A stretch of 64,000 nucleotides of DNA. Source: an uncultured bacterium. GTDB lineage: Bacteria > Babelota > Babeliae > Babelales > Vermiphilaceae. The position numbers and the translations under genes are program-made. Below the pieces are notes generated by a model that searched no databases, had not been told where the DNA came from, and worked only from the letters and a program-made list of their open reading frames with translations. This document shows, piece by piece, positions 17,343-58,060 of this stretch. Every line of letters begins with the position of its first letter. The stretch's first letter is position 1. The DNA lies in assembly GCA_963707655.1 (NCBI GenBank), contig OY970172.1:672001-736000 (forward strand), given 5' to 3'.

Positions 17343-17936
17343 GTGCAAGAGAAGCATATTGGTATAGTTCTGAAAAATTATTTTCCCAAGAAATGCAAGC
17401 TATCGTTACTCGATAACAAAATGGGTAAAATAAGCGGCGTTCCAACAGCAGGAACTCATGTTGCTGCCGGTTCATTAATCGAATATTCTTTGGTTGAACA
17501 GCCGGCATGTTCTTTTCTTTATAGTATTAATGTGCACGACGTGCCTTTTGCGCTCGCGCAAGAGGATATTCTTTTTTTGCATCACGTACTGGAAATTTGT
17601 TATTATTTTATGCCAATAAAAAGCTATAATCCTACGATTTTCTCATTGTTACATGTATTGTATATGAGTGATGGCTGGTTACACACTATGGCCGTTAAAA
17701 AATTTTTTTTACTTAAATTATTTGTACTGCTGGGATTGTACCCCGAGGACAAAAAATTTAGAACTCCGTCATTTCATCGATTGGTCACTGCGCCATTTGC
17801 GCAGATGCTGAGCGGAGATATAGATTCTTATGATGAAGAGACTGTTAACGAATGGTTGCGTTTGTGTGTCGCATCTCATCCAATAGCAGATAAATTTAAA
17901 ACAACGTATTTTTTAGATAGTTGCAGGGAAATATGA
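17343..17936 (+). CDS. Divergent RecO-like protein
   Basis: GIVLK...LSLLD..MGKI OB-fold-like start followed by helical region; weak. Confidence 0.4.
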   Translation: MQEKHIGIVLKNYFPKKCKLSLLDNKMGKISGVPTAGTHVAAGSLIEYSLVEQPACSFLYSINVHDVPFALAQEDILFLHHVLEICYYFMPIKSYNPTIFSLLHVLYMSDGWLHTMAVKKFFLLKLFVLLGLYPEDKKFRTPSFHRLVTAPFAQMLSGDIDSYDEETVNEWLRLCVASHPIADKFKTTYFLDSCREI

Positions 17937-20900
17937 AAAAATTGTTGCACGGTATAATATGCCTGTTAGCTGCCTTTGGTCACCGCATGCACGCAGATCC
18001 TATCGCTGAACTTGAAAAATTAGGAAAACATTTATTGCCCGCCAGCGCAAGCGTTTCTACGCAGGATCAAAAAAAGATCTTTACGAGTAATGTTGAAAGT
18101 AAACAGGCAATGCTGGCCAACTATCAAGCAGAAAAAAAACGTTTGGAAGAAGAAAATAGAACGAATGCTCCCGCTATTACCACTGAATTGGAAGAGACCC
18201 TGAGTAAAATCAGGGTGACTGAGGAAGTGCTGAGAAAAGACCCTGACAATGAATTTTTAAAAAGAAAAAAAACATTGCTGAGCGAAAAATATTATGTTTT
18301 GAAAGAATACCAGCAGGCATTTGAGCAACAGCGCCATTTGATTGATCAGATTATTAAAAATCTTACGAATTATTTGGCCGACCCTGAAAATAAAAAATTC
18401 ATTGAACAGTTTCATGAAAAAAAGAAAACTTTTGAAGAGCTACAGGTTATATACCAAAAAGCTATCGAAGAAGAAAAATCTCTTGAAAGCCTGAATGATC
18501 AGGAAAAGAATGCGATTTCTGAACTAGACAATCGCAAACGAGCTGCAAATGCAGATAATGCTTTGTACCAACAGCACAAAGAGCTGCTTGAGAGTGAGCG
18601 TCCCGTACCTGAAGGCATGACACGCGCTGAAGGGGGCGAGCTATGGCAGCTGCAAGAGCATTTATTTACCGATAAAAAACGCGTTGACGAGCTTAAATTT
18701 GAAGAAATTAAACTTAAGCTTGAGTTGATTAGACTGAAAATGTTCATTGCACGTGTACAGCGGGATACCTTGCGGGATACATTCCGCGACATGACATCCG
18801 AGGTCCAGGTGAGCGAGGCCGATGTCACCAATGTGAAAGAAGATTTAGAAAAGAAAAGGCAACAATTTTACACTAATGTACGATCTGTTGATTATGCCAT
18901 TGAACAGAGCAGTAATGACCTTAAGATGCATAAACAAGAGTTGGAAATTCTCGCCAAGCGCTATAACATAATTCTTGATGCTGATTTGGATAAATGGAGT
19001 AAAGAGCCAAAGCAATTGGTAAGCTCTTATGTAGGCATTTGTGAAGTCGGACTCGAAAACGACATTGTGCTTGCACTGTATCGCAAAAAAGATTACCTCA
19101 AAAGCTTGATACATAAAGAAAATGAAAAAATTAAACAGGAAGAGACACTTCTCAAAATCAAAGAAACATTTCACAAAATCCGTTTTGCAAAATTTAGCGC
19201 CAAAGAGCTCGATCAGGAGCTTAAAAACTATGATTTGATTAAGGCCGGCATCAGAGCTCATATCTCTTTGTACAATGAGCGCAAAAATATGGCGACAGAA
19301 CTTTTAGAAGTCCAAAAACGAGCCTTGGAAAATATAGACCAGCTCAGAAATGATATCAAAAACACTCTTAAAGATACGTTATTTAAGGACTATAGTCGCG
19401 ATTACACCCATTGCCTTGAGCTTATCACCAATGCAATAGAGCGCATTAGAGCACAGATAGATCTCATCAATAAAACGATGGCAACCTATACCGACATTAT
19501 TTTCTTGTTGAGCTCAACCAGCAAACAGATAGATTTTATTGTTTTAGAACTGAATTCAACGACCATCTGGTACCGTCCGCAATATGCGATTTCCTGGGAA
19601 GGATTGATGCGCATTATACCCGATGTTGAGCGGTTTGCTTCCGATTTGACCAGCTATTTCAGTCAAGTAAAACCGGTTGTTTTGCTTAATGCCTTCAAAA
19701 ACAGTATTAAAAATCCGCTTTCTCTCTTTATCTCATTTTTATTATTACTCGTCATGATCCTGCTTTTGCTGCTCGCAAAAATCATGTTACCATCTGCACT
19801 ACATCGCATTCAGGTAGCTGCCCAAACTAGAGCATATGTTTATACGCTGTACATGTTTTTAGTCGCTCTTGGCCGTTTTTTACTCATCCATTTTAATGGC
19901 ATAGCCGTATGGTTGGTGATGTATGGATCATTCAAATTACAGATTATTGATAATCCCTATCTGTACAGCCTCTTTTACTTAATTTCAATACCGTATCTCC
20001 TGTATTTGGCACATCAATTTATTTCTTACTTTGCCTCATTTAATCAAGAACATGGCTATCTGTTTTTAAGCAAAGATTTTGAATTTCGTTTTACGCTCAT
20101 GTTTTCAGCTCTTTTGTATGTGACCATTATCTTATATTTCTTCAAAGAAGCCTTTATGTTGGGCAATTACCGCCGCTCCGAATTGCCGAGCGTGCTTGTT
20201 GCTTTAAACTTTATTTTTATCCAGGTTGTTCTTATTGCCCTTATACCAAAGAATCAGATTGTTAATTTGATTCCGACGCATGACATATGGGGATGGATAC
20301 ATGAACAAATCAATCGCTATTATTATTTGGTTATTTTGTGCATAGTCACCATTATCGTCATGAGCAATCCATATGTAGGTTTTGGCCGCCTGGTTGCCTA
20401 TGTTATCTGGCGCATTCTTTATACCATCATCGTAGTAATAATTCTTCTATGGCTACATCGTCTAATCAAACGTTTTTGTGCCTATTTCTTCTTTGTAGAA
20501 GAAGACGATGTTCAGCGAGAGCGTTTCGCCCATGCGAAAAGTTGGTATGGTTTTGCGGTAATTTTACTCTTTTTATTCTTTATTTTCCTGGGACTCATTA
20601 TATTGGCAAAAGTATGGGGATGGCCGGAGCAGCTGGCAAAAATATCTCACATTCGCGACATTGTTCACGGATTGCAACACCCTTTCACCAATGTCGATCA
20701 AAAACCTGTCTCTGTCTGGACCATTTTGCGCCTTATTTTCTTTATTTTAGGCGGCCTGGGCGTTTCATTTGCCTTTAACCGTTTTGTGATGGGCAAAATC
20801 TTTGATATTTTACTCATTGAACCGGGTATTCAAAATACGATTTCAAGCATTACCTATTATCTCTGCTTTGTTTTATCGGTGATTATCGGATTCAATGTCG

Positions 20901-21511
20901 TCGGGCTTAATTCCTTGCTGTATTGGCTGCTTGCATTAGTAGTGGGTATCGGTTGGATCATTAAAGACCCGGTGAGCGATTTTGTTTCCTATTTTATTAT
21001 CTTGGTACAGCGCCCCATTAAGGTGGGCGATTTAATACGGCTTGAAGAAGAGGGAGCTCCTGGTGTGGTTCGTCGCATCACGCCACGATCGGTATTAATG
21101 AGACGCAGAAACAGCACTACCGTTATTGTTCCAAACTCGGTAATAATCAATAAAAACATTATTAACTGGAACTATACGCGCGACTTTATCGCTTTTGATG
21201 ATATTTTGATTACCATATCGTATGAATCTGACGCAATTTTAGCACAGCGCATTTTTCTCTCTGTATTGAGCGAAAACCCTTACATTTTGAAAAACCCAAA
21301 ACCTGTCGTGCGTCTTGATGACTTTAGTGAAAACGGTTATGTGTTTATGGTCCGCGGCTTTTTGAGTTCAAATTATACGCTCGACCAATGGGATATTGCC
21401 AGCGATGTGCGTCTTTCTATGATTCGCATACTCAAAGAGGCCGGCATTGAAGTGGCGGTACCTATGCGCAGGCTTATTTCTGCCGACAATCAGCTTAACG
21501 AGAATAAATAA
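17933..21511 (+). CDS. Large mechanosensitive channel, MscS family (MscK-like)
   Basis: Signal peptide, long coiled coil, many TMs, C-terminal RPIKVGD, IVPNS, INW, NPKP.V. Confidence 0.88.
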   Translation: MKKLLHGIICLLAAFGHRMHADPIAELEKLGKHLLPASASVSTQDQKKIFTSNVESKQAMLANYQAEKKRLEEENRTNAPAITTELEETLSKIRVTEEVLRKDPDNEFLKRKKTLLSEKYYVLKEYQQAFEQQRHLIDQIIKNLTNYLADPENKKFIEQFHEKKKTFEELQVIYQKAIEEEKSLESLNDQEKNAISELDNRKRAANADNALYQQHKELLESERPVPEGMTRAEGGELWQLQEHLFTDKKRVDELKFEEIKLKLELIRLKMFIARVQRDTLRDTFRDMTSEVQVSEADVTNVKEDLEKKRQQFYTNVRSVDYAIEQSSNDLKMHKQELEILAKRYNIILDADLDKWSKEPKQLVSSYVGICEVGLENDIVLALYRKKDYLKSLIHKENEKIKQEETLLKIKETFHKIRFAKFSAKELDQELKNYDLIKAGIRAHISLYNERKNMATELLEVQKRALENIDQLRNDIKNTLKDTLFKDYSRDYTHCLELITNAIERIRAQIDLINKTMATYTDIIFLLSSTSKQIDFIVLELNSTTIWYRPQYAISWEGLMRIIPDVERFASDLTSYFSQVKPVVLLNAFKNSIKNPLSLFISFLLLLVMILLLLLAKIMLPSALHRIQVAAQTRAYVYTLYMFLVALGRFLLIHFNGIAVWLVMYGSFKLQIIDNPYLYSLFYLISIPYLLYLAHQFISYFASFNQEHGYLFLSKDFEFRFTLMFSALLYVTIILYFFKEAFMLGNYRRSELPSVLVALNFIFIQVVLIALIPKNQIVNLIPTHDIWGWIHEQINRYYYLVILCIVTIIVMSNPYVGFGRLVAYVIWRILYTIIVVIILLWLHRLIKRFCAYFFFVEEDDVQRERFAHAKSWYGFAVILLFLFFIFLGLIILAKVWGWPEQLAKISHIRDIVHGLQHPFTNVDQKPVSVWTILRLIFFILGGLGVSFAFNRFVMGKIFDILLIEPGIQNTISSITYYLCFVLSVIIGFNVVGLNSLLYWLLALVVGIGWIIKDPVSDFVSYFIILVQRPIKVGDLIRLEEEGAPGVVRRITPRSVLMRRRNSTTVIVPNSVIINKNIINWNYTRDFIAFDDILITISYESDAILAQRIFLSVLSENPYILKNPKPVVRLDDFSENGYVFMVRGFLSSNYTLDQWDIASDVRLSMIRILKEAGIEVAVPMRRLISADNQLNENK

Positions 21512-22734
21512 TCAGGATACGTAGCTCTATCTTTATTGCGTGTGTCTTGTAGTGCCTGGGCGTAGCCAGCCACCTGGCTTCCTATGCCTTCAGGATACAT
21601 GCTGTACGGCTTGCTCTTAGAATAGTGATGAGTGTATTGCATGATTAAGCTTAGCGCGCTGATGCTCAGACTTGCCATCGACAAGGCATTGTTTTTAACA
21701 TGTTCTTTAATAAAGCTTTTCCACGAAGACTCAAATAATTTTTTATTGCGCATTATTTCATCCAATGCATTTCTAAAATCTTGCTGACACGGATGCGCCT
21801 CATCACGCACCGCTGCATACGCGAGCATTTCTTGTGTTAACTCTTTGATTTCCCGTGCAGAGAAGCCATCAATCTTGTGCGCCATCATCTTGACCATCTC
21901 AGGGTCAATGCTATTGGCTGCATAAAAACTTATTATTTTTTCTCGCATTGCTCTATGGGGAAGATCGATGGCAACAATATGATTGCTGAATCGGCTTTTT
22001 AATGCATCGGGAATATTTTCTAGGCTGTTGGTGGTGCCTATGAAGAGTATGTTTTTATGAGACGAGCATTCATCAATCAATTGCCATAAAGCAACGGCAA
22101 CATCTTGATCGGCTCGTTGATCGTTCTTTTTTTTATCAATAAGACAATGAATTTCATCCAAAATAATCACATAGGGCTGGCTACTATTTTTGATAGAGGT
22201 AATAATGCGCTTCAGGTTTTGAGCGCCGGAATTTTGATACTCGGTAGCTAAAAGAGATGATTGCAGAAAGATAAAGGGGCGCCCAATTTTTTGCGCAATT
22301 GCTTTTGCTATATCAGATTTGCCAACGCCCGGCGGACCAACGAGCAGGAGCTTATCGGTTATTAATAAAGAGCGCAATGCCGGCAACGCATGGGGTGCAC
22401 GTTGAAAACGTTCGATAATGGTTTTAATCCGTGCAGGGCAATCCTGCAATAAATAGGCAACCAATGTATCGTCCAGTCTATCTTCTTGGGGCAATGCATC
22501 AGAAAATTGATCCGCTGATTGCGTGCCTACTGAAGATGACCAAAACAGCTCTTGCGGTATGTCTATGGAGGTAGGAAAACCCTTTTTTCCGGCACCTTCT
22601 AACATTTCTTCAAATGTCTTGTCGCTCATCATATAATTGTCATCAGACAACTCAGGCTGCTCATTTTCTGCGTACATGCCTATGCTGAACAGGCAGATGT
22701 TTAATAAAAATAGCTGATACAAAAGTTTGTTCAT
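21490..22734 (-). CDS. AAA+ ATPase with signal peptide and C-terminal hydrophobic helix
   Basis: GPPGVGKS, IILDE, GTTN...ALKSRF, GFSAREI. Confidence 0.88.
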   Translation of the reverse strand: MNKLLYQLFLLNICLFSIGMYAENEQPELSDDNYMMSDKTFEEMLEGAGKKGFPTSIDIPQELFWSSSVGTQSADQFSDALPQEDRLDDTLVAYLLQDCPARIKTIIERFQRAPHALPALRSLLITDKLLLVGPPGVGKSDIAKAIAQKIGRPFIFLQSSLLATEYQNSGAQNLKRIITSIKNSSQPYVIILDEIHCLIDKKKNDQRADQDVAVALWQLIDECSSHKNILFIGTTNSLENIPDALKSRFSNHIVAIDLPHRAMREKIISFYAANSIDPEMVKMMAHKIDGFSAREIKELTQEMLAYAAVRDEAHPCQQDFRNALDEIMRNKKLFESSWKSFIKEHVKNNALSMASLSISALSLIMQYTHHYSKSKPYSMYPEGIGSQVAGYAQALQDTRNKDRATYPDYLFSLS

Positions 22735-22768
22735 GTGAATGTTTTCGGAGTCTTATTTAAATGAATCT

Positions 22769-24220
22769 TTAAGCAGTTTTTTCTTCTTTGGGCGCGCGTT
22801 TGCAATAACGATATATAAAATAACCACCCACACCTACCGCAACAGGCACCCCAACGACTACCGCTGTTGGCGCTGCAGCGACGCTTGCTCCCACCCCAAC
22901 AAGTGTCGCTTTAAGGCCTCCAAGAAGAGTTGCTGCCGTCACTGTTTGTCCGGTAGCCACCGTCGCTACTACAGCAGTTGTTTCAAGCCCTGCGGCTGTC
23001 GACGCCCCAGAAGCGGCTGTTAGAGCAGCAGCTTCCGCAATTTTATCAATTGCATCTTTGTGTTCTCCAGCTTTCTCACAAACCACTTTCCCTGTGCTAA
23101 AAAGCCATTGCCCACCAGAAAGGATCATTGAACCGGCTGAGAGCAACAGACCATATGTTGCTGGATTAGCTGCAATAGGATGATCATTATAAAAGCGCTT
23201 CTCCCAAGATTCGCTTTCCTGTTTTTCGGAAGGGCTGTCTATTTTTAAAATTTGAACTGCGTGCTGTATTACTCCAGGTGTTAATTCAACGTGGTGATCA
23301 CATATTAGGCTTCTAATTCTTTTTGATAAAAATTCGAGATCGCGATGCGAGCAATCGTTGCATTCACGCGCAATAGTCGCAATGAGTTGTTCATTAATAG
23401 TGCCTTCTTTAAGTTCATCTGCCATACGAAATTTTATACTTTTTTCTTTTTCTTCTTGATTGGGTAACCCAATAGTAATTGTATGACTTGCAACCCTGCT
23501 GCGTAGCGTGTCTGGGAGATTATCAGTGCTATTGGCAGTGAAAATAAAGAAAAGATTTACGTTATCCAAAGCATTATCTATAGAAGTCCCAAGTGCAAGT
23601 CCTGTATCCTGCTTGTGAATTTTTTTGATGTCACTAAAGCCATGGAGTTCATCTAAAATAACAACGGCAAAATCTTTATTCATGGCCTGCGCTTTTTCGA
23701 TGGACCTTTGTAGATTTGCTTCAGCTGAATTTTGGTATTCATTACCAAGCGATGCTCCTTGGAGAAAAACAAAAGGCGCGTTTATTTCTTGCGCGATAGC
23801 CTTCGCAATATGTGATTTGCCCCCTCCCGGAGGTCCAACCAATAATATAGCCGAGGTCATGAGATGCTTCTTTTTTGTTTTAACATCTGTGGATTTGTAT
23901 TTTTTAATATTTTTTACAGTGTCACGTAAATTTTTAGGACAGGTTTCTATGAGAAAATCAGCGTATTCTTGATCAAGGCAACCATCGCACAGCGGCTCGT
24001 CTTTCTTCTTGTCGGTCTCGCTTTCTCCGTTTATTTCTTCGTAAAAATCTTCTTCTTCCGCATATTCTGCGGTATCTCTTTTGGGGAAAAGATGCGCTTG
24101 CAAACTCTCATCGCTATACGCATTATCGTGCGCAGGGTTCTTGACGAACTCGGGTGTGATGGCATTAAGTTGTGCGAGCATCAGAACAATGGTTAAGATA
24201 CTGTAACGAATAATTTTCAT
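22769..24220 (-). CDS. AAA+ ATPase with signal peptide and C-terminal hydrophobic segments
   Basis: GPPGGGKS, VILDE, TAN...TLRSR; Ala/Gly/Val-rich TM tail. Confidence 0.88.
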   Translation of the reverse strand: MKIIRYSILTIVLMLAQLNAITPEFVKNPAHDNAYSDESLQAHLFPKRDTAEYAEEEDFYEEINGESETDKKKDEPLCDGCLDQEYADFLIETCPKNLRDTVKNIKKYKSTDVKTKKKHLMTSAILLVGPPGGGKSHIAKAIAQEINAPFVFLQGASLGNEYQNSAEANLQRSIEKAQAMNKDFAVVILDELHGFSDIKKIHKQDTGLALGTSIDNALDNVNLFFIFTANSTDNLPDTLRSRVASHTITIGLPNQEEKEKSIKFRMADELKEGTINEQLIATIARECNDCSHRDLEFLSKRIRSLICDHHVELTPGVIQHAVQILKIDSPSEKQESESWEKRFYNDHPIAANPATYGLLLSAGSMILSGGQWLFSTGKVVCEKAGEHKDAIDKIAEAAALTAASGASTAAGLETTAVVATVATGQTVTAATLLGGLKATLVGVGASVAAAPTAVVVGVPVAVGVGGYFIYRYCKRAPKEEKTA

Positions 24221-24272
24221 TATAATTCCTTCTTGTTAATAATGAAATGTGCTGATAAGTTCAATGTTTTAT

Positions 24273-25406
24273 TTATTGAGTAATGGGCGCGGCTATGGCA
24301 ATTTGTTGCTGGTCCTCGGGCTCTGTTGGTTTTTTGTTTTTTTCCACTTCTTCTTTTTTCTTTTTCACATTTGTTCTCTCTGCCGCCGCATAGCCGATAT
24401 TGTACATAGCAAGAGAATTTCCCAAGGCCCCCACAAAAGGCATTACTGCTGGATGATTTCTGCAAAATCGCTGCTGCCAATTTTCCTTTTTTCCGTGCCG
24501 TGCATTGTTAAAGGCTTTGATGTCATTGTCAAAAGCTTCGACTTGTCTCGCTACGCACTCATCAAAAGCTTCTGCCGGCTCATCAAGAAAATCCTCCACC
24601 CAGCGAGACAACGCGGCTAAATGTTCATAGGAAAAATTTTTGGTTTTTTTCGCCAAGGACAGAATAAATTTTTCATTGATCATCTTGTTTTCCGGGGCAT
24701 CTTTAAAAAAGATGTTGAAAGCTTCTACACGCGCCTCTTGGCTAGGATATGTTATGGCAACATGCTGGCGGTTGAGTCGACTCGTTACGCGGGGAGGAAA
24801 ATTTGCCATGTCATAGGTTGTGCAAATAAGAAAAATATTATTGCAAGCGCATCGATCGATAAAACTGCACAAAGGATATTGCGCATGCTCATTGTTCTCT
24901 AAAAGATGATCCATATTGTTCAAAATAATTATTAGTTGCTCATTGCGCTTTTTAGCGGCCCGCGCAAAACATTCTAAATAAGGTTCGCACGCGCTGAAAA
25001 CATATGATTCTATTTGAAGAACGCGAGCCTTCATGTGTTGAGCAATCGCTTTTGCCAAGTCCGCTCTGTCGCTCCCCGTTGGGCCAGTAAGCAAAAGAGT
25101 TCGATCCAAAAAACGTTTTCTGTCCTTTTCGTTATTTCTTGCTTCCATAGCTTCAAAATGTTGTAACAACTCTTTTACTTCTGCGGGACTATATTTTATG
25201 AGAAAGTCTGCATATTCGCTATCTAAACGGCGACTTCGGTTTTTTAATGACTCGTTTATGATGCGAATCTCTTCCTGCTTTTGTGCAATTCTTTGCTGCT
25301 CAGTCAGCTCTACCGGTATATAGGAAGCCTTTGTTTTATGCGACGCTTGCACGTGCAATGAATATATGCTCAAAAAAATCAAGAGATAATAGCTCGTATG
25401 CTTCAT
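24273..25406 (-). CDS. Degenerate AAA+ ATPase paralog with signal peptide
   Basis: Walker A GPTGSDRA (no GK), Walker B ILNNMD; shares LDSEYADFLI and WQQRFCRNHP blocks with neighbour. Confidence 0.75.
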   Translation of the reverse strand: MKHTSYYLLIFLSIYSLHVQASHKTKASYIPVELTEQQRIAQKQEEIRIINESLKNRSRRLDSEYADFLIKYSPAEVKELLQHFEAMEARNNEKDRKRFLDRTLLLTGPTGSDRADLAKAIAQHMKARVLQIESYVFSACEPYLECFARAAKKRNEQLIIILNNMDHLLENNEHAQYPLCSFIDRCACNNIFLICTTYDMANFPPRVTSRLNRQHVAITYPSQEARVEAFNIFFKDAPENKMINEKFILSLAKKTKNFSYEHLAALSRWVEDFLDEPAEAFDECVARQVEAFDNDIKAFNNARHGKKENWQQRFCRNHPAVMPFVGALGNSLAMYNIGYAAAERTNVKKKKEEVEKNKKPTEPEDQQQIAIAAPITQ

Positions 25407-25717: not shown

Positions 25718-27772
25718 ATGAGGAATGTATTAATGAATTTGAGACATTGGTCACTGATAGTATTGTTTATTACTGCCTGTGCGCAGGGGAAAAGAGAATA
25801 TGATGGTTTGTTTATTTCTGCCATTCCTCAACACTGTGTTATAGAGCAAACGTCCCCACTGCCATTACCGTTGCCATTGTATGTGCATGATCTTGCATTT
25901 GGTCCGGGGATTACTCATAGTGTTGACGGTACCGCATTAATTCAGACGTATATAAGCGCAGATCAACAAGCATTATTCAACAAACAGCCGCGAATCAGCG
26001 TAGACTTCAAATCTGAAATGTTAGGCCTACCTCTATTTGTGGGCGCGTCTCCTGCTTCGATAATAAATTTATGCATGGATATTGCTCGATGGATAAAGAC
26101 AACGTTAGCGACACTCAATCGATTACCCAACAATTGCGGTACTTTTAATGCAAATGCGTGGGCTTCTTTTTGTATCAATGAAAGAAGACTTTCTTATCCA
26201 TTTAATAATGCCGAGAGCAGCTATTTTAATGTTTTCACTCCTGAAATTAGAATGAGCTTATTGCATGATTATGCATTATATGAATACTCTGGCTACATAG
26301 ATTTTCTTAAATCATTTCCCGAATTTGAAGCTTTTGTAGAGCGTTTGCACGCTGATCAGGCACGTTTTAACATGTCGCTCGATTATCATGAGGTGAGTGA
26401 AAAAAAGCAACAGATAATCAAAAATGTCGTAGCCAATTTATCCGCACAAATCAAGGAAAAGCGCGCTGCCGAATTTGAAGCTAAAGAGGCTGAACGCATC
26501 GCTTTGATGGAAAAAACGCGTGAAGACAAGATAGTGAAAGAGGAATTGATATATCACTATAACCGCTATGCAGAAATAGCGCAGAACAATCCCGACGCAC
26601 CTGCCCGTTGGTCGGATTACAGAGCAATCATTGGCAACTTTCTCGATGGCAATGATAAGGCAACTTACACAGAAACATTTTCTGTTGATCAGCAAGGCGT
26701 GGCTCTTTTGAGCACAAAAGCGATTCCGGTTGAGCTTTTCGGGCAATGTACCGGCAACAATATGCAGCAGTTTTTACATCGCGGTTTTCTTGATTTGCTC
26801 GCACAAGCAGCCGATATAGATGAAAAAGATCTGCAATCATTGTTAGTTGATGGTGTTATTGTGGGGCAAGAGTTTAATCATGCCGGATACACCCATAAAG
26901 CCTTTAGTATAGCCAATTTTTGCCATACGCTTGTTGAACATTCGAAAGGGTTAGTGGAAGGGGCTTGGCACAGCGTTTGTAATGTGGCACATGCAGCATG
27001 CCATCCGATAAAAACAGCGCAAGCGATTAAAAATGGTGCTATTGCTATTGGCAAAGATCTGGATGAATTATTTAGGCACTTTAACAAGACAATCGATTAC
27101 CTGGACACGGTAAAAATTACTCTTCTTACCGATCGCACCCTAGCGAAACAAATGACCAAAGTCTTTCTTGAAGAAGAAGGAGTATATTGGAAGATGATGG
27201 GCGCTGCATTTCGCGATCGTTTAATCGCTTACGCAAAATTGACCGATCGTGAGCGCGGCAAATTGGTTGGCCGTCTGGCGATGGATAATTATCTTTTTGG
27301 CCGCGCATTATACTTATCGTCCCACATAAGCACATTCACAAAAACAAGAATATTTAAAGCGTTTAAAGCAGCAAAATCAGCACAGACGGCAGAAGAAATT
27401 GCGCTCGCAACCGCCGAAGGGATAGAAGTACCGCTTGGAAAAGCAGCTTCAGAGAATGTTCTTGCTCAGGAAATTGCGCAAACTGGAAAAATAGATCTGA
27501 ACTATCTTACAAATCAATCTGGTGAGGCTATTTTAAAAAATGGCTATTATGAGATTAATGGATTTAAGTTTAGTGAGCGTTACTACAAGCGTCTTTGGGA
27601 TAGCGGCAGACCTGCCCCTTCGTTAATAGCGAAATTGATATTAGAAAGCCCTGAAGTTGTTGTAGCTGACCAATTCAAGCAAGGGTTTTATAAGTACGTA
27701 GCGGATGGCTGGGAAATGGTTTATAATCCTTCCACAAAAGAAGTATGGCATTTACAACCTATAAGGGGATAA
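25718..27772 (+). CDS. Putative polymorphic toxin (signal peptide, helical pre-toxin region, small C-terminal toxin-like domain)
   Basis: GLVEGAW...HPIKTAQAI helical segment, LATAEG linker, compact C-terminal domain YYKRLWDSGRPAP...GWEMVYNPSTKEVWHLQP; small ORF 3 nt downstream. Confidence 0.6.
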   Translation: MRNVLMNLRHWSLIVLFITACAQGKREYDGLFISAIPQHCVIEQTSPLPLPLPLYVHDLAFGPGITHSVDGTALIQTYISADQQALFNKQPRISVDFKSEMLGLPLFVGASPASIINLCMDIARWIKTTLATLNRLPNNCGTFNANAWASFCINERRLSYPFNNAESSYFNVFTPEIRMSLLHDYALYEYSGYIDFLKSFPEFEAFVERLHADQARFNMSLDYHEVSEKKQQIIKNVVANLSAQIKEKRAAEFEAKEAERIALMEKTREDKIVKEELIYHYNRYAEIAQNNPDAPARWSDYRAIIGNFLDGNDKATYTETFSVDQQGVALLSTKAIPVELFGQCTGNNMQQFLHRGFLDLLAQAADIDEKDLQSLLVDGVIVGQEFNHAGYTHKAFSIANFCHTLVEHSKGLVEGAWHSVCNVAHAACHPIKTAQAIKNGAIAIGKDLDELFRHFNKTIDYLDTVKITLLTDRTLAKQMTKVFLEEEGVYWKMMGAAFRDRLIAYAKLTDRERGKLVGRLAMDNYLFGRALYLSSHISTFTKTRIFKAFKAAKSAQTAEEIALATAEGIEVPLGKAASENVLAQEIAQTGKIDLNYLTNQSGEAILKNGYYEINGFKFSERYYKRLWDSGRPAPSLIAKLILESPEVVVADQFKQGFYKYVADGWEMVYNPSTKEVWHLQPIRG

Positions 27773-27775
27773 TGT

Positions 27776-28129
27776 ATGAAAAATTTATTGATCGATGAAA
27801 GACAATTAGAAGAACAATTAAGAGAAATAGAAGAGAATGGCCAATTTTTAGCGGAGAAGCTTTTATCATTAAGCCGAGAAATTAAATATATTTTGTCCCA
27901 AATAAAATTATCTGAGAATGCAACAACTGCAGGTAAATACTTTGATTTATTACAAAAAACTCAAGTGGCGCTAGCAAAGCTTATGTACGTCAGCAAAATA
28001 GGGATACCTGATCCTTTATGTTGGTTTGTTCGTGATTTTGAGCGCATTGATGATAATGAATTACGCAATTATATTTTTAACAAAATTAAAAACGATGAAT
28101 ATTCTTTTGGCAAAAAATTGAATGGCTAA
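27776..28129 (+). CDS. Putative immunity protein
   Basis: 117-aa AT-rich ORF tightly coupled to the toxin-like gene, no signal peptide. Confidence 0.55.
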   Translation: MKNLLIDERQLEEQLREIEENGQFLAEKLLSLSREIKYILSQIKLSENATTAGKYFDLLQKTQVALAKLMYVSKIGIPDPLCWFVRDFERIDDNELRNYIFNKIKNDEYSFGKKLNG

Positions 28130-36612: not shown

Positions 36613-38184
36613 TCAACTTTTGCGCAAAGCGACCTCTTGAATGGCTTGCTTTATCAGATCAACATTTTGCTTAATACCAAAATAGGCCAAGCCACCCAAC
36701 GTATTGATCTGCTCTTGTGAATATTTAAAGTTAAAAGTACCACAATATTCATTTTCGCAAGCAACCGGATCAAAGCTGGTTGAATAATCACTATTGCTAA
36801 TCATAGGAAAATAGATAACAATCGGACATGCGCTGTTTGTTTCATCTTTAAATACACGCACAACACTTGTCCCTAAATCGGTGTAATCAATCGGTGGAAA
36901 CGGCACATTATTGCGTTCTGCATATTCCTGTGTTTGTCTGAGCGTATCAAAATTTTGATTGCCCTCAGTGGCATCATACACAATAATAATATCAACCGCA
37001 CGCGCAGGGCGCAGCAATGGGGGAAACGGCAGGTTACATGACAAGCCGCCATCCATCAACGTAAGATGGGTTTTATCTTTAAGAGGACTTGCCACAAATT
37101 TGTATGAAAAATTTTTCTCGTTTGAAGGGGCTATGCGCACGGTGTTGGCCGCATGATTAACCTTAATATCATGCAACATAGCAGTGATAGCCGGTTGCAT
37201 AAAAGAGGGCAATGCATCAACATCGGCAAAAATAGAAGCGCTGTAGCTATTAATAAGATCGCGCACATTCGCATCATATGCTGACCCAAACACTCCCATC
37301 ATATACGCAAGGGAAAGTTCCGGCGCTTTTTCAGTTGAAACGCCATTTTCAAATGAGCGGCCATACGCGTGTGTTGGGATATAGGTTTTGGCATACGAGC
37401 TCCCCATCTCATAAGGAGTACACTCAAACCATTGATATGGGTAAACATCCGGCGTTACCGCGGTATAAATAGGCAAAGGATATGCACCGCTCTCTACCGC
37501 TTTATGAGTATCTGAGAGCGTTACAAAAAAACGGTTATCGCCAAACTCTTGCAATAAGAGATTTGCCAGAAAAGTGCTATAAATATCGATTGATGAAAAA
37601 CCTTGTCCCGACTCAACTTTTCTTATTAAATAATCTGAAATATGCCAAAGATCATCAGCCGCCTGCGAAGCATTCAATCCATTCTCTGTTTTTGCACCAA
37701 GGCCATTAATATAGGTAGGCAAATCTATGCCGGAGCTGATCCATGGCGCTAAGGCCCATGTTGAACCTGAGAGCCCTGCCGCGTATAATGCGCTATCAAG
37801 CAACCCCTCTTCTTGCGCCGCTTTTAATGCGAACAATGCAGTAATCATTGCACGAAAACCGCCACCACTAAAGCACCATGCTATGCGGGGACAAGTATCT
37901 TGATTTGTCTGAATACCCATGGCGTTCAATGCGCTGCATACTGTTGCAAGACGCTTGGCAATTACTGCTTCTTCCTCTGCGCATAGAGAGTCTGCAGCAT
38001 CATAACGAACCGCTATTTTTTTATTATTGAGTTGCCCAATATGTGCAAATAATGTTTGTAAAAATTGCGGCATCCATCGTAGCTTATGTTCATATAAAAC
38101 ATATTCTGAGGTATCATTCAAAGCGCAAGAAAACGTAGGTAATAATAAAAGACAAAAAAACAAAACAACAGGATTTTTCTTCAT
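36613..38184 (-). CDS. Secreted cPLA2/phospholipase B-like lysophospholipase
   Basis: SGGGFRAM oxyanion, GLSGSTW nucleophile, WFECTPYE, GVFGSA, LMDGG..CNLP, R.VDIII. Confidence 0.88.
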   Translation of the reverse strand: MKKNPVVLFFCLLLLPTFSCALNDTSEYVLYEHKLRWMPQFLQTLFAHIGQLNNKKIAVRYDAADSLCAEEEAVIAKRLATVCSALNAMGIQTNQDTCPRIAWCFSGGGFRAMITALFALKAAQEEGLLDSALYAAGLSGSTWALAPWISSGIDLPTYINGLGAKTENGLNASQAADDLWHISDYLIRKVESGQGFSSIDIYSTFLANLLLQEFGDNRFFVTLSDTHKAVESGAYPLPIYTAVTPDVYPYQWFECTPYEMGSSYAKTYIPTHAYGRSFENGVSTEKAPELSLAYMMGVFGSAYDANVRDLINSYSASIFADVDALPSFMQPAITAMLHDIKVNHAANTVRIAPSNEKNFSYKFVASPLKDKTHLTLMDGGLSCNLPFPPLLRPARAVDIIIVYDATEGNQNFDTLRQTQEYAERNNVPFPPIDYTDLGTSVVRVFKDETNSACPIVIYFPMISNSDYSTSFDPVACENEYCGTFNFKYSQEQINTLGGLAYFGIKQNVDLIKQAIQEVALRKS

Positions 38185-53790: not shown

Positions 53791-54990
53791 ATGAAAAAAT
53801 ATATACTAGTCTTGGGCATGCTTGAAATGTGCTCACTGACATGCATGGATAGTAAATCAGCCCAAAAGACCATTTCTCATTTTTTTGTGATTAACAAAGA
53901 AATGACCCTACCACAATTTGTCTCGTCCAGGTTCCAAGCACAGGGAATCAATGCTGGCTTGCAAAACTTTAAACAAAGACTGACTTGTGTCCCATGTAAT
54001 TACAAGACTGAAAGGGCTTGGGAATACGACGAACACTCAAGAACTAGAAAGCACCAAGCGCTAACAAAAATCGCTACGACAGACCAAGAGCGCCGGATTC
54101 AAGCAGCATGGAATAGACACCAGAAAAAATTCATTTGCGCTTGTAATACAACCTTTCTGAATGTGTTTCAATTTGAAAGGCATCACTGCATTGCACAAGA
54201 AACTTTAGCAAATTTCATGCATTCCGAACAAGACCTGATGTGTGTCCCTTGTAATTATTATGCTAAAAGCGCTTATGAATACAAGACGCACGTCGAAAAA
54301 ACTGTTCGACACCAAGCGCTAATAAAAATCGCCACGACTGATCAAGAGCGCCGAGTCCAAGCAGCGTGGGATAGAGAACGGAAAATATTCATTTGCGCTT
54401 GTAATAAAACTTTTCTGAATGTGTTTCAATTTGAAAATCACCAGTGCATTCCACAAAAAACTCTAGCAAGTTGCATGAATTCCGAACAAAAACTGGCTTG
54501 TGCCCCATGTAATTATGAGACTAAAAACGCTCGGGACTACATCCGACACGTTAACACATCTATGCTACACCAAGCGCTAACAAAAATCGCTACGACCGAC
54601 CAAGAGCGCCGGATTCAAGCAGCATGGAATAGAGAACTGAGAAGATTAATTTGCGCTTGCAATAAAGCTTTTCTGAACGTGTCTCACTTTGAAAGGCATC
54701 ACTGCAGTAAAACTCAATTTTTAGCAAATAACACTGATCAAAGCGATCTAGGTTTCAATGAAGAACTACAAGATGGACAGGATGTTATTAGAGATGTTCA
54801 GAGCGCTATGGATAAGCACTCGATTCAGGAAAATGGCCGGCTAGATAGTTTTTATCCAAGCATCACGTATGATGACCAAATAGATTCAACATCGTATCAA
54901 GATGAACAGGACCTTGCTCTTGGCACTGATGAGGATTTGCGTGAATGGTTGGGAAACATGACCGCATCTTCTCATGAAAAAGATGCCTAA
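53791..54990 (+). CDS. Secreted zinc-finger repeat protein 1 (3 units)
   Basis: MKK signal; 3 x [CxxC-x12-H-x5/6-H, QALTKIATTDQERRIQAAW, CxC-x12-HxC]; acidic tail. Confidence 0.85.
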   Translation: MKKYILVLGMLEMCSLTCMDSKSAQKTISHFFVINKEMTLPQFVSSRFQAQGINAGLQNFKQRLTCVPCNYKTERAWEYDEHSRTRKHQALTKIATTDQERRIQAAWNRHQKKFICACNTTFLNVFQFERHHCIAQETLANFMHSEQDLMCVPCNYYAKSAYEYKTHVEKTVRHQALIKIATTDQERRVQAAWDRERKIFICACNKTFLNVFQFENHQCIPQKTLASCMNSEQKLACAPCNYETKNARDYIRHVNTSMLHQALTKIATTDQERRIQAAWNRELRRLICACNKAFLNVSHFERHHCSKTQFLANNTDQSDLGFNEELQDGQDVIRDVQSAMDKHSIQENGRLDSFYPSITYDDQIDSTSYQDEQDLALGTDEDLREWLGNMTASSHEKDA

Positions 54991-57875
54991 CATAGATTGC
55001 TGCATGGACAAGAAGAGCTAGGTTGGGTAATGTAAACTCTGTTTGTACATAAACCCTGCACAGATCATTCATTTTGATAATGTCCTGTTATAAGAAGGTT
55101 ATTCTGCTATGAAAAAATATATACTAGTCTTGGGCATGCTTGAAATTTGCTTACTCACGTGCATGGATAATAAACCCGGCCAAAAGACCGTTTCTGATTT
55201 TTTTGTGATTAAAAAAGAAATGACCTTTCCGCGATTTGTCTCGTCGAGATGCCAGGTGCCAAGAGAACCTGGTGGCTCGCAAAGCTTTGAGCGAAGCCCG
55301 GCTTGCATCACGTGCAATTATAAGGCTAAAAGCGTTCTTGACTACAACCGACACGTCAAAAAAACTACTCTACATCAAGCGCTAACCAGAATCGCTACAA
55401 CAGATCGCGAGCTCCGGATACAAAAAGCGTGGAACAGAGATCAGAGAAGATTCATTTGCGCTTGCAATAAAATTTTTCCGAATGTACTTCACTTTGAAAA
55501 CCATGTCTGCATTTTACAAGAAAATCTGGCAAGCTTCGTGAATTCTGAGCAAAGCCTGACGTGCAGCGCCTGTAATTATAGCAATACGATGGCTTCGGAA
55601 TTCCAAACCCACTGTAACTCTAGACAACACCAAGCGCTAACAAAAATCGCTACGACAGACCAAGAACGCCGAATACAAGCAGCATGGGATAGAGACCAGA
55701 GAAAATTCATTTGCACTTGCGGCAAGGCTTTTTCGAATGTATTTCACTTTGAAACCCATGTCTGCATTTTACAAGAAAATCTGGCAAGCTTCGTGAGTTC
55801 TGAACAAAGCCTGACATGCACCACCTGTAATTATAGCAATACAATGGCTTCGGAATTCCAAACCCACTGCAACACTAGACAACACCAAACGTTAACAAAA
55901 ATGGCTACGACAGACCAAGAGCGCCGGGTCCAAGCGGCATGGGATAGAGGCAAGAGAAGATTCATTTGCGCTTGCAATAAAGTTTTTCCGAATGCGTTTC
56001 GTTTTGAAAATCATCGATGCAATGAATCTCAATTTTTAGCAAACAACACTGATCAAAGCGATCTAGGTTTCAATGAAGAACTACAAGATGAACAGAATGT
56101 TATCGGAGACGCTCAGGGCGCTATGGATGAGCATTTGATTCAGCAAAATGGCTGGCTAGATAGTTTTTATCCAAGCATCACACATTATGAACAAGACCTT
56201 GCTCTTGGCACTGATGCAGCAGTAGCTGCTTTAACCAGTCTTCAAAAAACCTGCGTCATCTGCAATTATACCGCTAAAGATGTCAGGCAATATAAGCAAC
56301 ACTCCCGCAACGCGACACACCAAGCATTAACAAAAATTGCTACGACAGACCAAGAGCGCCGGATTCAAGCAGCGTGGGATAGAGAACAGAGAAAATTCAT
56401 TTGCGCTTGTAATAGAGCTTTTCTGTACGTGCCTCACTTTGAAAGGCATCACTGCAGTAAAATTCGATTTTTAGCAAACAATACTGATCAAAGCGATCTT
56501 CTAGGTTTCAATGAAGAACTGCAAGCTGAACAAGATGTTATTAGAGACGCTCGGGGCGCTATCGATGATCAAATAGATTCAACATCGTATCAAGATGAAC
56601 AGGACCTTGCTCTTGGCACCGATGAGGATTTGCGTGAATGGTTGGGAAACATGACCGCATATTCTCGTGAAAAAGATGCCTAACACCGATCTTTCATTCA
56701 TTTTGATGGTGTCCTGTCATGAGAAGGTTATTCTGCTATGAAAAAATATATACTAGCCTTGAGCGTGCTTGAAGTTTGTTCATTGACATGCATGGACAGT
56801 GGATCCGGCAGAAATGCCATTTCCTCTTATTTTGTTCTTGAAAAAGAGCAAACGCTACGACAGTTTGCCGCACAGCGAGACAAAGATCGAGAAGCGGTAG
56901 CTGCTTTAACTAGTCTTCAAAAAACCTGCGTCACCTGCAATTATACCGCTAAAGATGCTCGGCAATATAGGCCACACTCGCGCAACGCGACACACCAAGC
57001 ATTAACAAAAACCGCTACGACAGACCAAGAGCGCCGGATTCAAGCAGCGTGGAATAGAGAACTGAAAAAGTTCACTTGCTCCTGTGGAGCACTTTTTTCT
57101 GACATGGGCCGCTTTAAAGCCCACCACTGCATTTTGCAAAAAAAGTTCGCAAATTTTATAACTCCTGAACAGCATCTGACGTGCGCCACGTGTAATCATA
57201 GCGACAGATTGCCTGCCAGCTTCCAAAGGCACTTAGAAAGCGCACACCATGAAGCACTGACAAAAATTGCCAGCACAGATCAAGAACACCGAGTTCAAGC
57301 AGCATGGAACAGAGAACAAAAAAAATTCATTTGTTCTTGTGGCAATGTTTTTTCGCGTATAGATTTTTTTCAAGGACATGACTGTATCCAAAATAGTTTT
57401 CTGGATTCTGAACAAGGCTTTGTATGTACCACCTGCAATTATAAAACCACAGAAACTGATTTATTCATAAAACATCGCAAAAACGCTATCCACTTGGCGT
57501 TAACAAAGACCGCTACCACTGACCAAGAACGCCGGGTGCAGGCAGCCTGGAACCGAGCACAGAGAAAATTCATTTGCATTTGTGATAAGTATTTTTATCG
57601 TCTATCCGATTTTGAAAACCATGAATGCATGTTGACAGATAATTTTTCTAACCTTGAAAAAGAGCTTAATTGCGCTCCATGCAATTATAAAGTCGCTGAT
57701 GGCTGGCATTGGGCAAGACACTTAAACAGCGCACAACATCAGGCATTAACAAAGACCGCCATAACTGATCAAGAACGCTGGATTCAAGCCGCATGGAACA
57801 AAGACTCAAAAACGTTCATTTGTTACTGCGATAAAGGTTTTCATGATATAACCCTTTTAAAACGACACCGCTGCA
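53986..57875 (+). repeat. Eleven copies of an ~255-bp coding repeat across three genes
   Basis: Unit starts at 53986, 54241, 54499 in gene 1; 255-nt period at 55501/55756 in gene 2; conserved core caccaagc.ctaacaaaaat.gctacgac.gaccaaga.cgccg. Confidence 0.9.
55109..56683 (+). CDS. Secreted zinc-finger repeat protein 2 (4 units, chimeric)
   Basis: Same architecture; internal copy of the acidic tail before unit 4. Confidence 0.85.
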   Translation: MKKYILVLGMLEICLLTCMDNKPGQKTVSDFFVIKKEMTFPRFVSSRCQVPREPGGSQSFERSPACITCNYKAKSVLDYNRHVKKTTLHQALTRIATTDRELRIQKAWNRDQRRFICACNKIFPNVLHFENHVCILQENLASFVNSEQSLTCSACNYSNTMASEFQTHCNSRQHQALTKIATTDQERRIQAAWDRDQRKFICTCGKAFSNVFHFETHVCILQENLASFVSSEQSLTCTTCNYSNTMASEFQTHCNTRQHQTLTKMATTDQERRVQAAWDRGKRRFICACNKVFPNAFRFENHRCNESQFLANNTDQSDLGFNEELQDEQNVIGDAQGAMDEHLIQQNGWLDSFYPSITHYEQDLALGTDAAVAALTSLQKTCVICNYTAKDVRQYKQHSRNATHQALTKIATTDQERRIQAAWDREQRKFICACNRAFLYVPHFERHHCSKIRFLANNTDQSDLLGFNEELQAEQDVIRDARGAIDDQIDSTSYQDEQDLALGTDEDLREWLGNMTAYSREKDA

Positions 57876-58060
57876 ATAAAAATCCATTTTTAGTACATGA
57901 CGCTGATAAAAACAATCAAGATCTTGACCAAGAAGTGGTAGACAAACAAGATATTTCTCTGCCCGGAGAAGATGATTTAGATGAATGGCTAGATAGAGTA
58001 GAAACATCTCGGGTAAAAAAGATGCTTGAAACTAGATTTAATGCGGTTAGTTCTGATTAA
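56738..58060 (+). CDS. Secreted zinc-finger repeat protein 3 (4 units)
   Basis: Same architecture; tail EDDLDEWLD. Confidence 0.85.
   Translation: MKKYILALSVLEVCSLTCMDSGSGRNAISSYFVLEKEQTLRQFAAQRDKDREAVAALTSLQKTCVTCNYTAKDARQYRPHSRNATHQALTKTATTDQERRIQAAWNRELKKFTCSCGALFSDMGRFKAHHCILQKKFANFITPEQHLTCATCNHSDRLPASFQRHLESAHHEALTKIASTDQEHRVQAAWNREQKKFICSCGNVFSRIDFFQGHDCIQNSFLDSEQGFVCTTCNYKTTETDLFIKHRKNAIHLALTKTATTDQERRVQAAWNRAQRKFICICDKYFYRLSDFENHECMLTDNFSNLEKELNCAPCNYKVADGWHWARHLNSAQHQALTKTAITDQERWIQAAWNKDSKTFICYCDKGFHDITLLKRHRCNKNPFLVHDADKNNQDLDQEVVDKQDISLPGEDDLDEWLDRVETSRVKKMLETRFNAVSSD

Follow-up and report, generated by a model that had tools for sequence, protein, structure and literature searches.

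In which compartment would three tandem AAA ATPases of a bacterium work when each of them begins like a secreted protein, and on what would they act? The question is raised by three adjoining genes in a 64,000-nucleotide stretch of DNA (hereafter the window) from an uncultured bacterium of the Vermiphilaceae (phylum Babelota), covering positions 672,001 to 736,000 of contig OY970172.1 (assembly GCA_963707655.1). We refer to their products as P0001, P0002 and P0003, to the source genome as G000, and to fetched homologous loci by L-numbers. The three proteins belong to a real, hitherto unnamed family found in Babelota-like genomes. On balance, we think it probable that they are exported and tail-anchored on membranes facing the cytosol of a protist host, there to remodel proteins of the host at the expense of its ATP.

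The window lies within a single 1.09-Mb contig. Genes for three ATP/ADP translocases are present in the genome, along with two for secretins and two for Omp85; a close homologue (P0016) is labelled Ca. Dependentiae. The traits reported for TM6/Dependentiae include a small genome, translocases and a gspD present in two copies (PMC4776705), and the source bacterium is likely a Babelota protist parasite with a small genome. Signal-like or membrane N-termini, by a loose heuristic, occur in 416 of its 775 called genes; for Chromulinavorax, signal peptides are reported at 44% (PMC6561590).

Three tandem AAA genes

The open reading frames lie head to tail on the minus strand (Table 1), with gaps of 52 bp between P0003 and P0002 and 34 bp between P0002 and P0001. 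Upstream of P0003, a 311-bp gap is followed by a divergent gene, and the 3′ end of P0001 overlaps by 22 bp a convergent large gene for an MscS-family channel (17921–21511, plus strand; 1196 residues with a long N-terminal region). Scans for promoters and terminators gave counts near chance (15 against 10.4 ± 3.0 expected, and 5 against 4.9).

That these are three tandem AAA ATPases with signal-like N-termini, as the first-pass annotation had it, stands on Pfam PF00004 matches of 98, 74 and 37 bits for P0001, P0002 and P0003 (cut-off 21) and on predicted signal anatomy, called by a hydropathy heuristic and by eye: all three have a basic n-region, a hydrophobic (h) region of 10–13 residues and an Ala at a position resembling that before a signal peptidase site (YA, LNA and VQA, respectively). 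The P-loop core and helical lid place them in the AAA+ superfamily, by Pfam for all three and, in the case of P0001 and P0002, also by modelled structures and searches for similar folds. Their cores are not closely similar: P0001 and P0002 share 34% identity, and P0003 shares 24–25% with either. The common layout, seen in the models of P0001 and P0002, is a signal-like start, a linker (acidic and of low confidence in both models) and the AAA module, after which come two helices, the first amphipathic and the second hydrophobic. P0001 and P0002 have every catalytic motif (Walker A K[ST], Walker B DE, sensor 1 and Arg finger) and are predicted from these to be active; downstream of its core, P0001 has a lid with FSAREI containing the sensor-2 Arg. 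In the models a short helix, at the place of pore loop 1, follows strand 2 (helix 159–164 after strand 154–158 in P0001; helix 155–160 after strand 150–154 in P0002). Structural matches to P0002 cover residues 75–337, and the shared block noted at first sight before the AAA core is part of the AAA module and no domain of its own. Likewise, a W..RF..HP block is present as described, only as the local form of an amphipathic helix, W...K.F(L/I)KEN(G/A)P, that follows the AAA module throughout the family.

The claim of C-terminal membrane segments holds firmly for one protein of the three. The best 19-residue Kyte–Doolittle (KD19) value is firm for P0002 (1.99) and marginal for P0001 (1.26) and P0003 (1.08). 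In P0002, the Ala/Thr/Val/Gly region closes with the firm span and a basic C-terminus; this tail is conserved in a same-genus orthologue (L124:4102–5478), and the reading frame over 22856–23086 is supported by a contig from an independent run (run X2 record 8).

Table 1. Features of the three AAA genes (positions in the window; KD17 and KD19, Kyte–Doolittle hydropathy over 17 and 19 residues)
Feature	Description	Position	Strand	Basis
P0001	414 residues: signal-like N-terminus, acidic disordered linker, intact AAA, amphipathic and moderately hydrophobic helix	21490..22734	-	
P0001 predicted signal peptide	Residues 1–22, ending MYA, then acidic ENEQPE	22669..22734	-	Sequence and hydropathy heuristic
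P0001 AAA core	Pfam residues 129–253: GPPGVGKS, EYQNSG, LDE, N, LKSRF	21976..22350	-	
P0001 hydrophobic helix	Residues 349–365, KD17 1.52, KD19 1.26	21640..21690	-	
P0002	483 residues: signal-like start, disordered acidic linker and intact AAA domain, then a hydrophobic helix and an extended Ala/Thr/Val/Gly region	22769..24220	-	
P0002 predicted signal peptide	Residues 1–20, ending LNA	24161..24220	-	Sequence and hydropathy heuristic
P0002 AAA core	Pfam residues 125–246: GPPGGGKS, EYQNSA, LDE, N, LRSR; sensor-2 Arg in lid	23483..23848	-	
P0002 Ala/Thr/Val/Gly-rich membrane tail	Residues 396–471; best span 453–469, KD17 2.11	22808..23035	-	
P0003	377 residues: pseudo-ATPase with a signal-like start, a catalytically dead AAA domain and a tail of marginal hydrophobicity	24273..25406	-	
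P0003 predicted signal peptide	Residues 1–21, ending VQA	25344..25406	-	Sequence and hydropathy heuristic
P0003 degenerate Walker A	GPTGSDRA, residues 108–115	25062..25085	-	Run X3 record 23, 0 differences
P0003 degenerate Walker B	NN replacing DE, residues 163–164	24915..24920	-	Runs X1 record 7 and X2 record 14, 0 differences
P0003 weakly hydrophobic helix	Residues 321–337, KD17 1.13	24396..24446	-	

A Babelota family with its own motif signature

The family was sampled from about 100 regions around 150 of the places matched (174 others lay outside this sample), plus profile matches from 1.8 billion representatives; FtsH/Lon-type loci, found by a Walker A pattern search of genome contigs, served as outgroup and background. 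At a profile threshold of E ≤ 1e-44, 61 of the 261 genomes available for the phylum have members, spread over 8 of its 21 family groups; this is a floor, because no more than 7 candidates per genome were scored. A count of 142/261 at E ≤ 1e-30 was rejected as the family size, since FtsH reaches that level. Copy number is patchy (0–7 per genome), and the fetched loci hold 33 adjacent same-strand pairs, one of them with an unrelated MgsA neighbour. The source genome has a fourth paralogue (G000:C1:1050371–1051444, plus strand; 357 residues, intact motifs), which lies about 2.3 kb from genes that by eye resemble type II secretion or pilin assembly genes. A set of 300 genomes, drawn from the phylum to which a chlamydial metagenome-assembled genome belongs, gave one match at 1e-40, an FtsH-like protein without a signal, and the family is likely restricted to Babelota, other phyla beyond those 300 genomes being sampled by four genomes. 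An Atlas search returned generic AAA clusters only.

FastTree, run on 411 domain representatives (70% identity), places the fourth paralogue together with P0001 and P0002 in a clade of 192 proteins, hereafter the core, with support 93 after three Lon rows inside it had been dropped as long-branch artefacts; dead copies lie beside the clade on long branches. With IQ-TREE (74 rows), 39 of 39 core and pseudo-ATPase rows are on one side of a branch with support 97, and the four G000 proteins are in one 13-row clade (support 95). The exact set of 52 Babelota single-domain proteins had support 0. The phylogeny that the first-pass annotation had called for separates the family from FtsH, Cdc48 and SpoVK, in unrooted trees built without meiotic-clade or eukaryotic references; an origin from FtsH is plausible.

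Catalytic residues are well kept. Among 187 core rows, the Walker A Lys is present in 186, the Walker B Glu in 184, sensor 1 and the Arg finger in 185 each, and the pore-loop aromatic in 175. The catalytic motif set is complete in 170, and family members would therefore use ATP where they work. The AAA fold matches classic-clade structures with Z 16–20 (root-mean-square deviation 2.7–4.0 over 228–254 residues), and the best matches, to p97 D1, i-AAA, FtsHi, FtsH and Vps4, tie at Z 19–20 (the i-AAA ATPase domain at Z 19.9, deviation 2.7 over 233 residues). The classic clade (clade 3) is defined by a short helix after strand 2, at pore loop 1, and by Ala in place of a sensor-2 Arg, and its translocases have an aromatic-hydrophobic(-Gly) pore loop 1 (PMC5039278). 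In the family, the sensor-2 Arg is present in 182/187 core rows (FtsH controls have Ala in 86/90), there is a single Arg finger (R.GRF in 0/192 core proteins against 90/90 FtsH), and the pore loop reads Y-[QKR]-N-S, with Y in 143 and F in 32 of the 187, then Q (68), K (64) or R (35), then N (137). The extra Arg of the meiotic clade (xxRRF) is found in 7/192; the window proteins have KSRF, RSRV and TSRL. The classic-clade core first assigned to the three proteins thus holds for the fold and not for the sensor-2, Arg-finger and pore-loop signatures; the family is classic-clade-derived, but lies outside the full definition of that clade.

With p97/Cdc48/VAT, FtsH/i-AAA, Vps4, Rpt/PAN and Msp1/ATAD1, the family shares the fold, the helix after strand 2, Walker A and B, sensor 1, the Arg finger and the pore-loop aromatic. 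It differs in that identity is 15–25%, there is no N-domain, MIT domain or protease, and a signal peptide and C-terminal anchor replace the N-terminal anchor. The idea of close mimics of Cdc48 or Msp1 gives way to a separate lineage. Unlike FtsH and i-AAA proteases, the window proteins have no M41 match and score 59 bits against 600 with TIGR01241; unlike Cdc48/p97/VAT, they have a single AAA domain, score 60 bits against 803 with TIGR01243 and are separate in the tree. From the meiotic clade and Msp1/ATAD1 they are set apart by motif, having no extra Arg before the finger, the trees containing no meiotic-clade sequences. No NCBIfam model comes near its cut-off for the window proteins (best 78 bits against 500).

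Pagnier et al. (2015) reported 13 COG0464 ATPases and nine signal-bearing Ulp1-AAA fusions in Babela massiliensis, proposed that the fusions act in the amoeba cytoplasm and called the fusion unique to Babela (PMC4378268); the notion that this phylum secretes AAA ATPases therefore predates the present analysis. The Babela fusions come from the same phylum and have predicted signal peptides and an AAA domain, and BAB00014 has by eye the same motif style (GPPGTGKS...TEYQGSG...IDEID). Relatives in our sample that are fused to Ulp1-like domains have the sensor-2 Arg and the single Arg finger, and lie with the core family on the same side of a branch (support 98) from FtsH, Cdc48 and SpoVK, one multi-domain row also being there. 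In contrast to the fusions, P0001, P0002 and P0003 lack a peptidase domain and consist of signal, AAA domain and tail alone, in a separate subclade (support 97 by the Shimodaira–Hasegawa-like approximate likelihood ratio test, SH-aLRT). The Babela "CDC48-like" family differs in having C-terminal AAA domains, another pore loop and eukaryotic best hits (PMC4378268). The accessible part of the Babela report mentions no tails, CaaX boxes or pseudo-ATPase pairs (PMC4378268), and beyond it the literature covered, from which subscription journals were outside scope, is silent on a stand-alone tailed family, CaaX boxes, rewired motifs and pseudo-ATPase pairs.

Topology and CaaX boxes

A signal-like N-terminus is present in 165 of the 192 core representatives. 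In 159 of these 165 the charge before the h-region exceeds that after it, and a second span before the ATPase occurs in 2, against 63 of 74 FtsH controls. The N-in charge pattern and the lack of a second span therefore place the ATPase outside the bacterial cytoplasm, whether or not the signal is cleaved; the uncleaved anchor with a cytoplasmic ATPase, which the first-pass annotation had named as the finding that would overturn its view, is not what the family displays. The h-region is at most 16 residues long in 157/165; its length was dropped as a discriminator of signals from anchors, medians of 11 and 14 (FtsH) failing to separate the two.

The strongest evidence for host delivery is an enrichment of C-terminal CaaX boxes, a tag to which no cells other than those of hosts are known to add lipids. 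After two open-ended rows had been dropped, 14 of 190 core proteins have Cys at position −4, against 14/772 G000 genes (Fisher p = 2.6e-4); the remaining eleven C-terminal positions hold 0–6 Cys each. Other Babelota AAA proteins have the Cys in 7/47, whereas the background sets gave 7/413 for signal-like G000 genes, 6/354 for neighbours and 4/528 for outgroup genes. A stricter pattern, set after examples had been seen, gave 11/190 against 3/772; among sequences fetched after the idea arose, the box is found in 10/115 core proteins (p = 3.7e-4). On the tree, CaaX needs 12 changes, against 13–14 in 20 shuffles, and is therefore scattered rather than confined to one clade, although kin do not count as independent cases. 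Six CaaX members have a hydrophobic segment whose end lies at most 7 residues from the C-terminus. We also considered CaaX as a replacement of the hydrophobic tail; this was unsupported (no segment in 6/21 against 48/216, p = 0.59).

CaaX-type tagging in G000 extends beyond the AAA family: other signal-bearing proteins end in CITS (G000:C1:553351–554760), CVIS (746532–747191) and CSIS (908538–910697; WD40-like by eye). The end of the signal shows a small residue and then Met-[EDQN] in 49/391 signal-like G000 genes, against 8/384 others and 2/152 signal-like outgroup genes, and in 13/21 CaaX-bearing AAA proteins. Possibly, the mature protein starts with Met, as cytosolic eukaryotic proteins do, which would be a marker of host delivery, or else the Met is a second start.

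The CaaX boxes recall AnkB of Legionella, an effector for which host prenylation of the CaaX box has been shown (PMC2916131). Effectors of that type share with the relatives of the window proteins a C-terminal CaaX on a protein of a protist parasite and targeting to membranes by host enzymes, and differ in being type IV-secreted non-ATPases, where the present family has a Sec-type signal. Fusions form a second line of evidence: core members L117 and L131 carry ankyrin repeats, while the fusion partners in sister proteins are Ulp1-like domains and repeated lid domains. L132, L134, L135, L137, L139 and L140 have a lid subdomain repeated several times after the AAA domain and end in a CaaX box; an N-terminal Ulp1-like domain is present in some of them. 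Ulp1-like domains suspected by eye from motifs in core members L131 and L133 were not significant in profile tests, and a profile of five Ulp1-like domains found no match in G000. Giant-virus AAA ATPases (BFVD models) likewise are parasite-encoded AAA folds expected in protist cytoplasm; at ≤21% identity they are a parallel case, with no close kinship shown.

P0003 and the pairing of dead with intact genes

The loss of the Walker A Lys and the Walker B DE from the third copy, noted at first sight, was confirmed. These changes are not assembly errors, because short-read contigs from other runs match both motifs with 0 differences. Moreover, P0003 has no pore loop 1, its sensor-1 Asn is replaced by Tyr and its sensor-2 Arg by Glu; among the catalytic residues, only the Arg finger is retained. 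At an A-rich run (window ~24330–24370) a copy of the gene, P0124, switches frame relative to P0003, and the last ~25 residues of P0003 are uncertain. A homologue search with P0003 returned as its sole match another copy of the same gene, and a profile from four pseudo-ATPases found no additional close dead relatives in 261 genomes.

In G231, a genome of the same genus, two genes of the P0002 subclade are each immediately preceded by a dead AAA gene (L124, with a 4-bp overlap; L173, at 32 bp); with P0003 and P0002 included, a dead gene is paired with a P0002-type gene in three of three cases in the genus. The P0001 orthologue of G231 adjoins mscS, again convergent with it, without the pair (L111), and the conserved unit is therefore the pair and not the trio. 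Dead genes also lie beside intact ones at L193, L187, L194, L177 and L130, a count biased by the fetching of loci around intact matches. The dead copies are about 21% identical among themselves and differ in the residues lost; a single clade of four of them was not rejected (approximately unbiased test, p-AU 0.64). P0003 and the two same-genus dead copies group with the P0002 subclade (support 97, IQ-TREE), a placement to be read with long-branch caution. The repeated pairing makes it plausible that P0003 serves as a partner or regulator of P0002-type subunits.

Where the three proteins would work

On the reading that we favour, the proteins would be exported by Sec and lose their signal peptides, as the N-terminal anatomy suggests, and would then cross the outer membrane by a type II/secretin system, for which the two secretins are candidates, or in outer-membrane vesicles. 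The amphipathic and hydrophobic tail would anchor them on the surface of a vacuole, organelle or replication body; in some relatives, a CaaX box, alone or directly after a hydrophobic segment, would be prenylated by the host. To judge from the fold, they may assemble into rings, which in the classic clade are closed hexamers that remodel proteins, and their conserved pore-loop Tyr would grip substrates in an ATP-driven manner, and P0003, to judge from the gene pairing, could be a non-catalytic partner of P0002-type subunits or a brake on them. That they act as unfoldases or extractases, and that hetero-oligomers with the dead subunit form, we only infer. Export and host delivery, as originally proposed, are supported at the level of the family by the topology, the CaaX boxes (out-of-sample sequences included), the ankyrin fusions and the two secretins in the genome.

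Several points weigh against delivery to the host. CaaX boxes are absent from P0001, P0002, P0003 and the fourth paralogue, and from 176 of 190 core members. The firm span and basic end of P0002 fit equally a stop-transfer anchor in the bacterial inner membrane, and tails with KD19 ≥ 1.6 are found in 68/190 core proteins; hydrophobic spans are awkward cargo for type II secretion. The family pore loop has neither the hydrophobic nor the Gly residue of known translocases, and the signal peptide call rests on a heuristic. The three window proteins may instead work in the periplasm or on the surface.

The strongest alternative, although we think it unlikely, is a motor of the envelope: type I inner-membrane proteins with a periplasmic ATPase, a bacterial counterpart of the mitochondrial i-AAA, or proteins of the outer surface, using host ATP on its way to the translocases for quality control or export of a very large secretome. 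The premise of a periplasm devoid of ATP carries little weight in a genome with three ATP/ADP translocases, since host ATP must cross that compartment to reach them. The final span of P0002, firm and followed by Arg/Lys, fits such a role, as do the signal-bearing FtsH derivatives described below (G000:341073–343550 and 473103–475583; also L147), and i-AAA ties as the best structural match, though p97 and FtsH equal it. Yet the CaaX boxes and ankyrin fusions of the same clade would be useless in the periplasm, and P0001 and P0003 have tails of only marginal hydrophobicity for a stop-transfer function. Housekeeping machines of the envelope, moreover, tend to be conserved and present in one copy; the present family diverges fast and is patchily distributed (61/261 at the strict threshold).

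Less probable still is that the proteins are delivered to the host and are no unfoldases, being ATP-switched scaffolds or tethers of the ATAD3 kind, or poisons of host AAA rings (p97, Vps4 or the proteasome base) with the pseudo-ATPases as decoys. The non-canonical pore loop, the single Arg finger and the sensor-2 Arg would suit such roles, as would the recurrence of catalytically dead copies and the Gln-rich helical stretches that are frequent downstream of the tails in the family, and a cultured relative is reported to wrap a host mitochondrion around itself (PMC6561590). Against this, the aromatic kept in the pore loop of 175/187 core rows suggests substrate grip, and co-assembly with host rings is doubtful at 15–25% identity to host-type AAA proteins. 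Finally, that the ATPases are cytoplasmic, with uncleaved N-terminal anchors as in FtsH or Msp1 or with a start at an internal Met that leaves out the signal, is very improbable: a Met follows the signal in 37/239 family members and two Lys stand right after the h-region of P0003, but the N-in charge pattern, the lack of a second span in 163/165, the short h-regions, the hydrophobic leader kept family-wide and the CaaX enrichment all speak against it.

Other genes of the genome and the window

A frameshift, which may be an indel of the assembly, divides the housekeeping ftsH of G000 (C1:462324–464193, plus strand). Another FtsH-like protein (C1:341073–343550, minus strand) has a signal-like N-terminus and no HEXXH motif; L147:2702–4531 encodes one with a signal-like N-terminus that keeps HEXXH and apparently has no second span. 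The gene at C1:473103–475583 (plus strand) encodes a signal peptide and three tandem AAA domains, the first degenerate, the second and third keeping the FtsH-type RxGRF. Relatives with 3–4 AAA domains and a dead first domain (P0125, P0130, P0165 and P0210) resemble fused dead and active subunits.

Elsewhere in the window, a signal-like protein of 684 residues with no Pfam match (25718–27772, plus strand) is followed 3 bp later by a reading frame of 117 residues (27776–28129, plus strand), a layout that recalls, as an impression only, a polymorphic toxin–immunity pair. Three adjoining reading frames at 53791–58060 (plus strand) have matches of the C2H2 zinc-finger type and are eukaryote-like, and a lysophospholipase (PLA2_B) domain protein (36613–38184, minus strand) is a candidate host-membrane enzyme.

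What the family would mean

Bacterial effectors are mostly enzymes modifying host molecules or binding adaptors. Our literature search for secreted or translocated AAA effectors, with subscription journals outside its scope, found no relevant paper. Exported AAA motors would add mechanical remodelling to the effector repertoire, and could account for the way in which organelles are remodelled by members of the phylum. More tentatively, Babelota may have turned a classic-clade AAA motor into phylum-wide modular secreted effectors with rewired catalysis, in which tails or prenylation would direct the motor to host membranes, ankyrin, Ulp1-like and lid repeats would provide specificity, and pseudo-ATPases would tune activity in hetero-rings; such effectors would form a class that acts on host proteins by mechanical force and not by chemistry. 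ATP-driven periplasmic machines are not known from ordinary bacteria. If the proteins are retained in the envelope, they would be machines of this kind, possible in an ATP thief, and either outcome would be informative.

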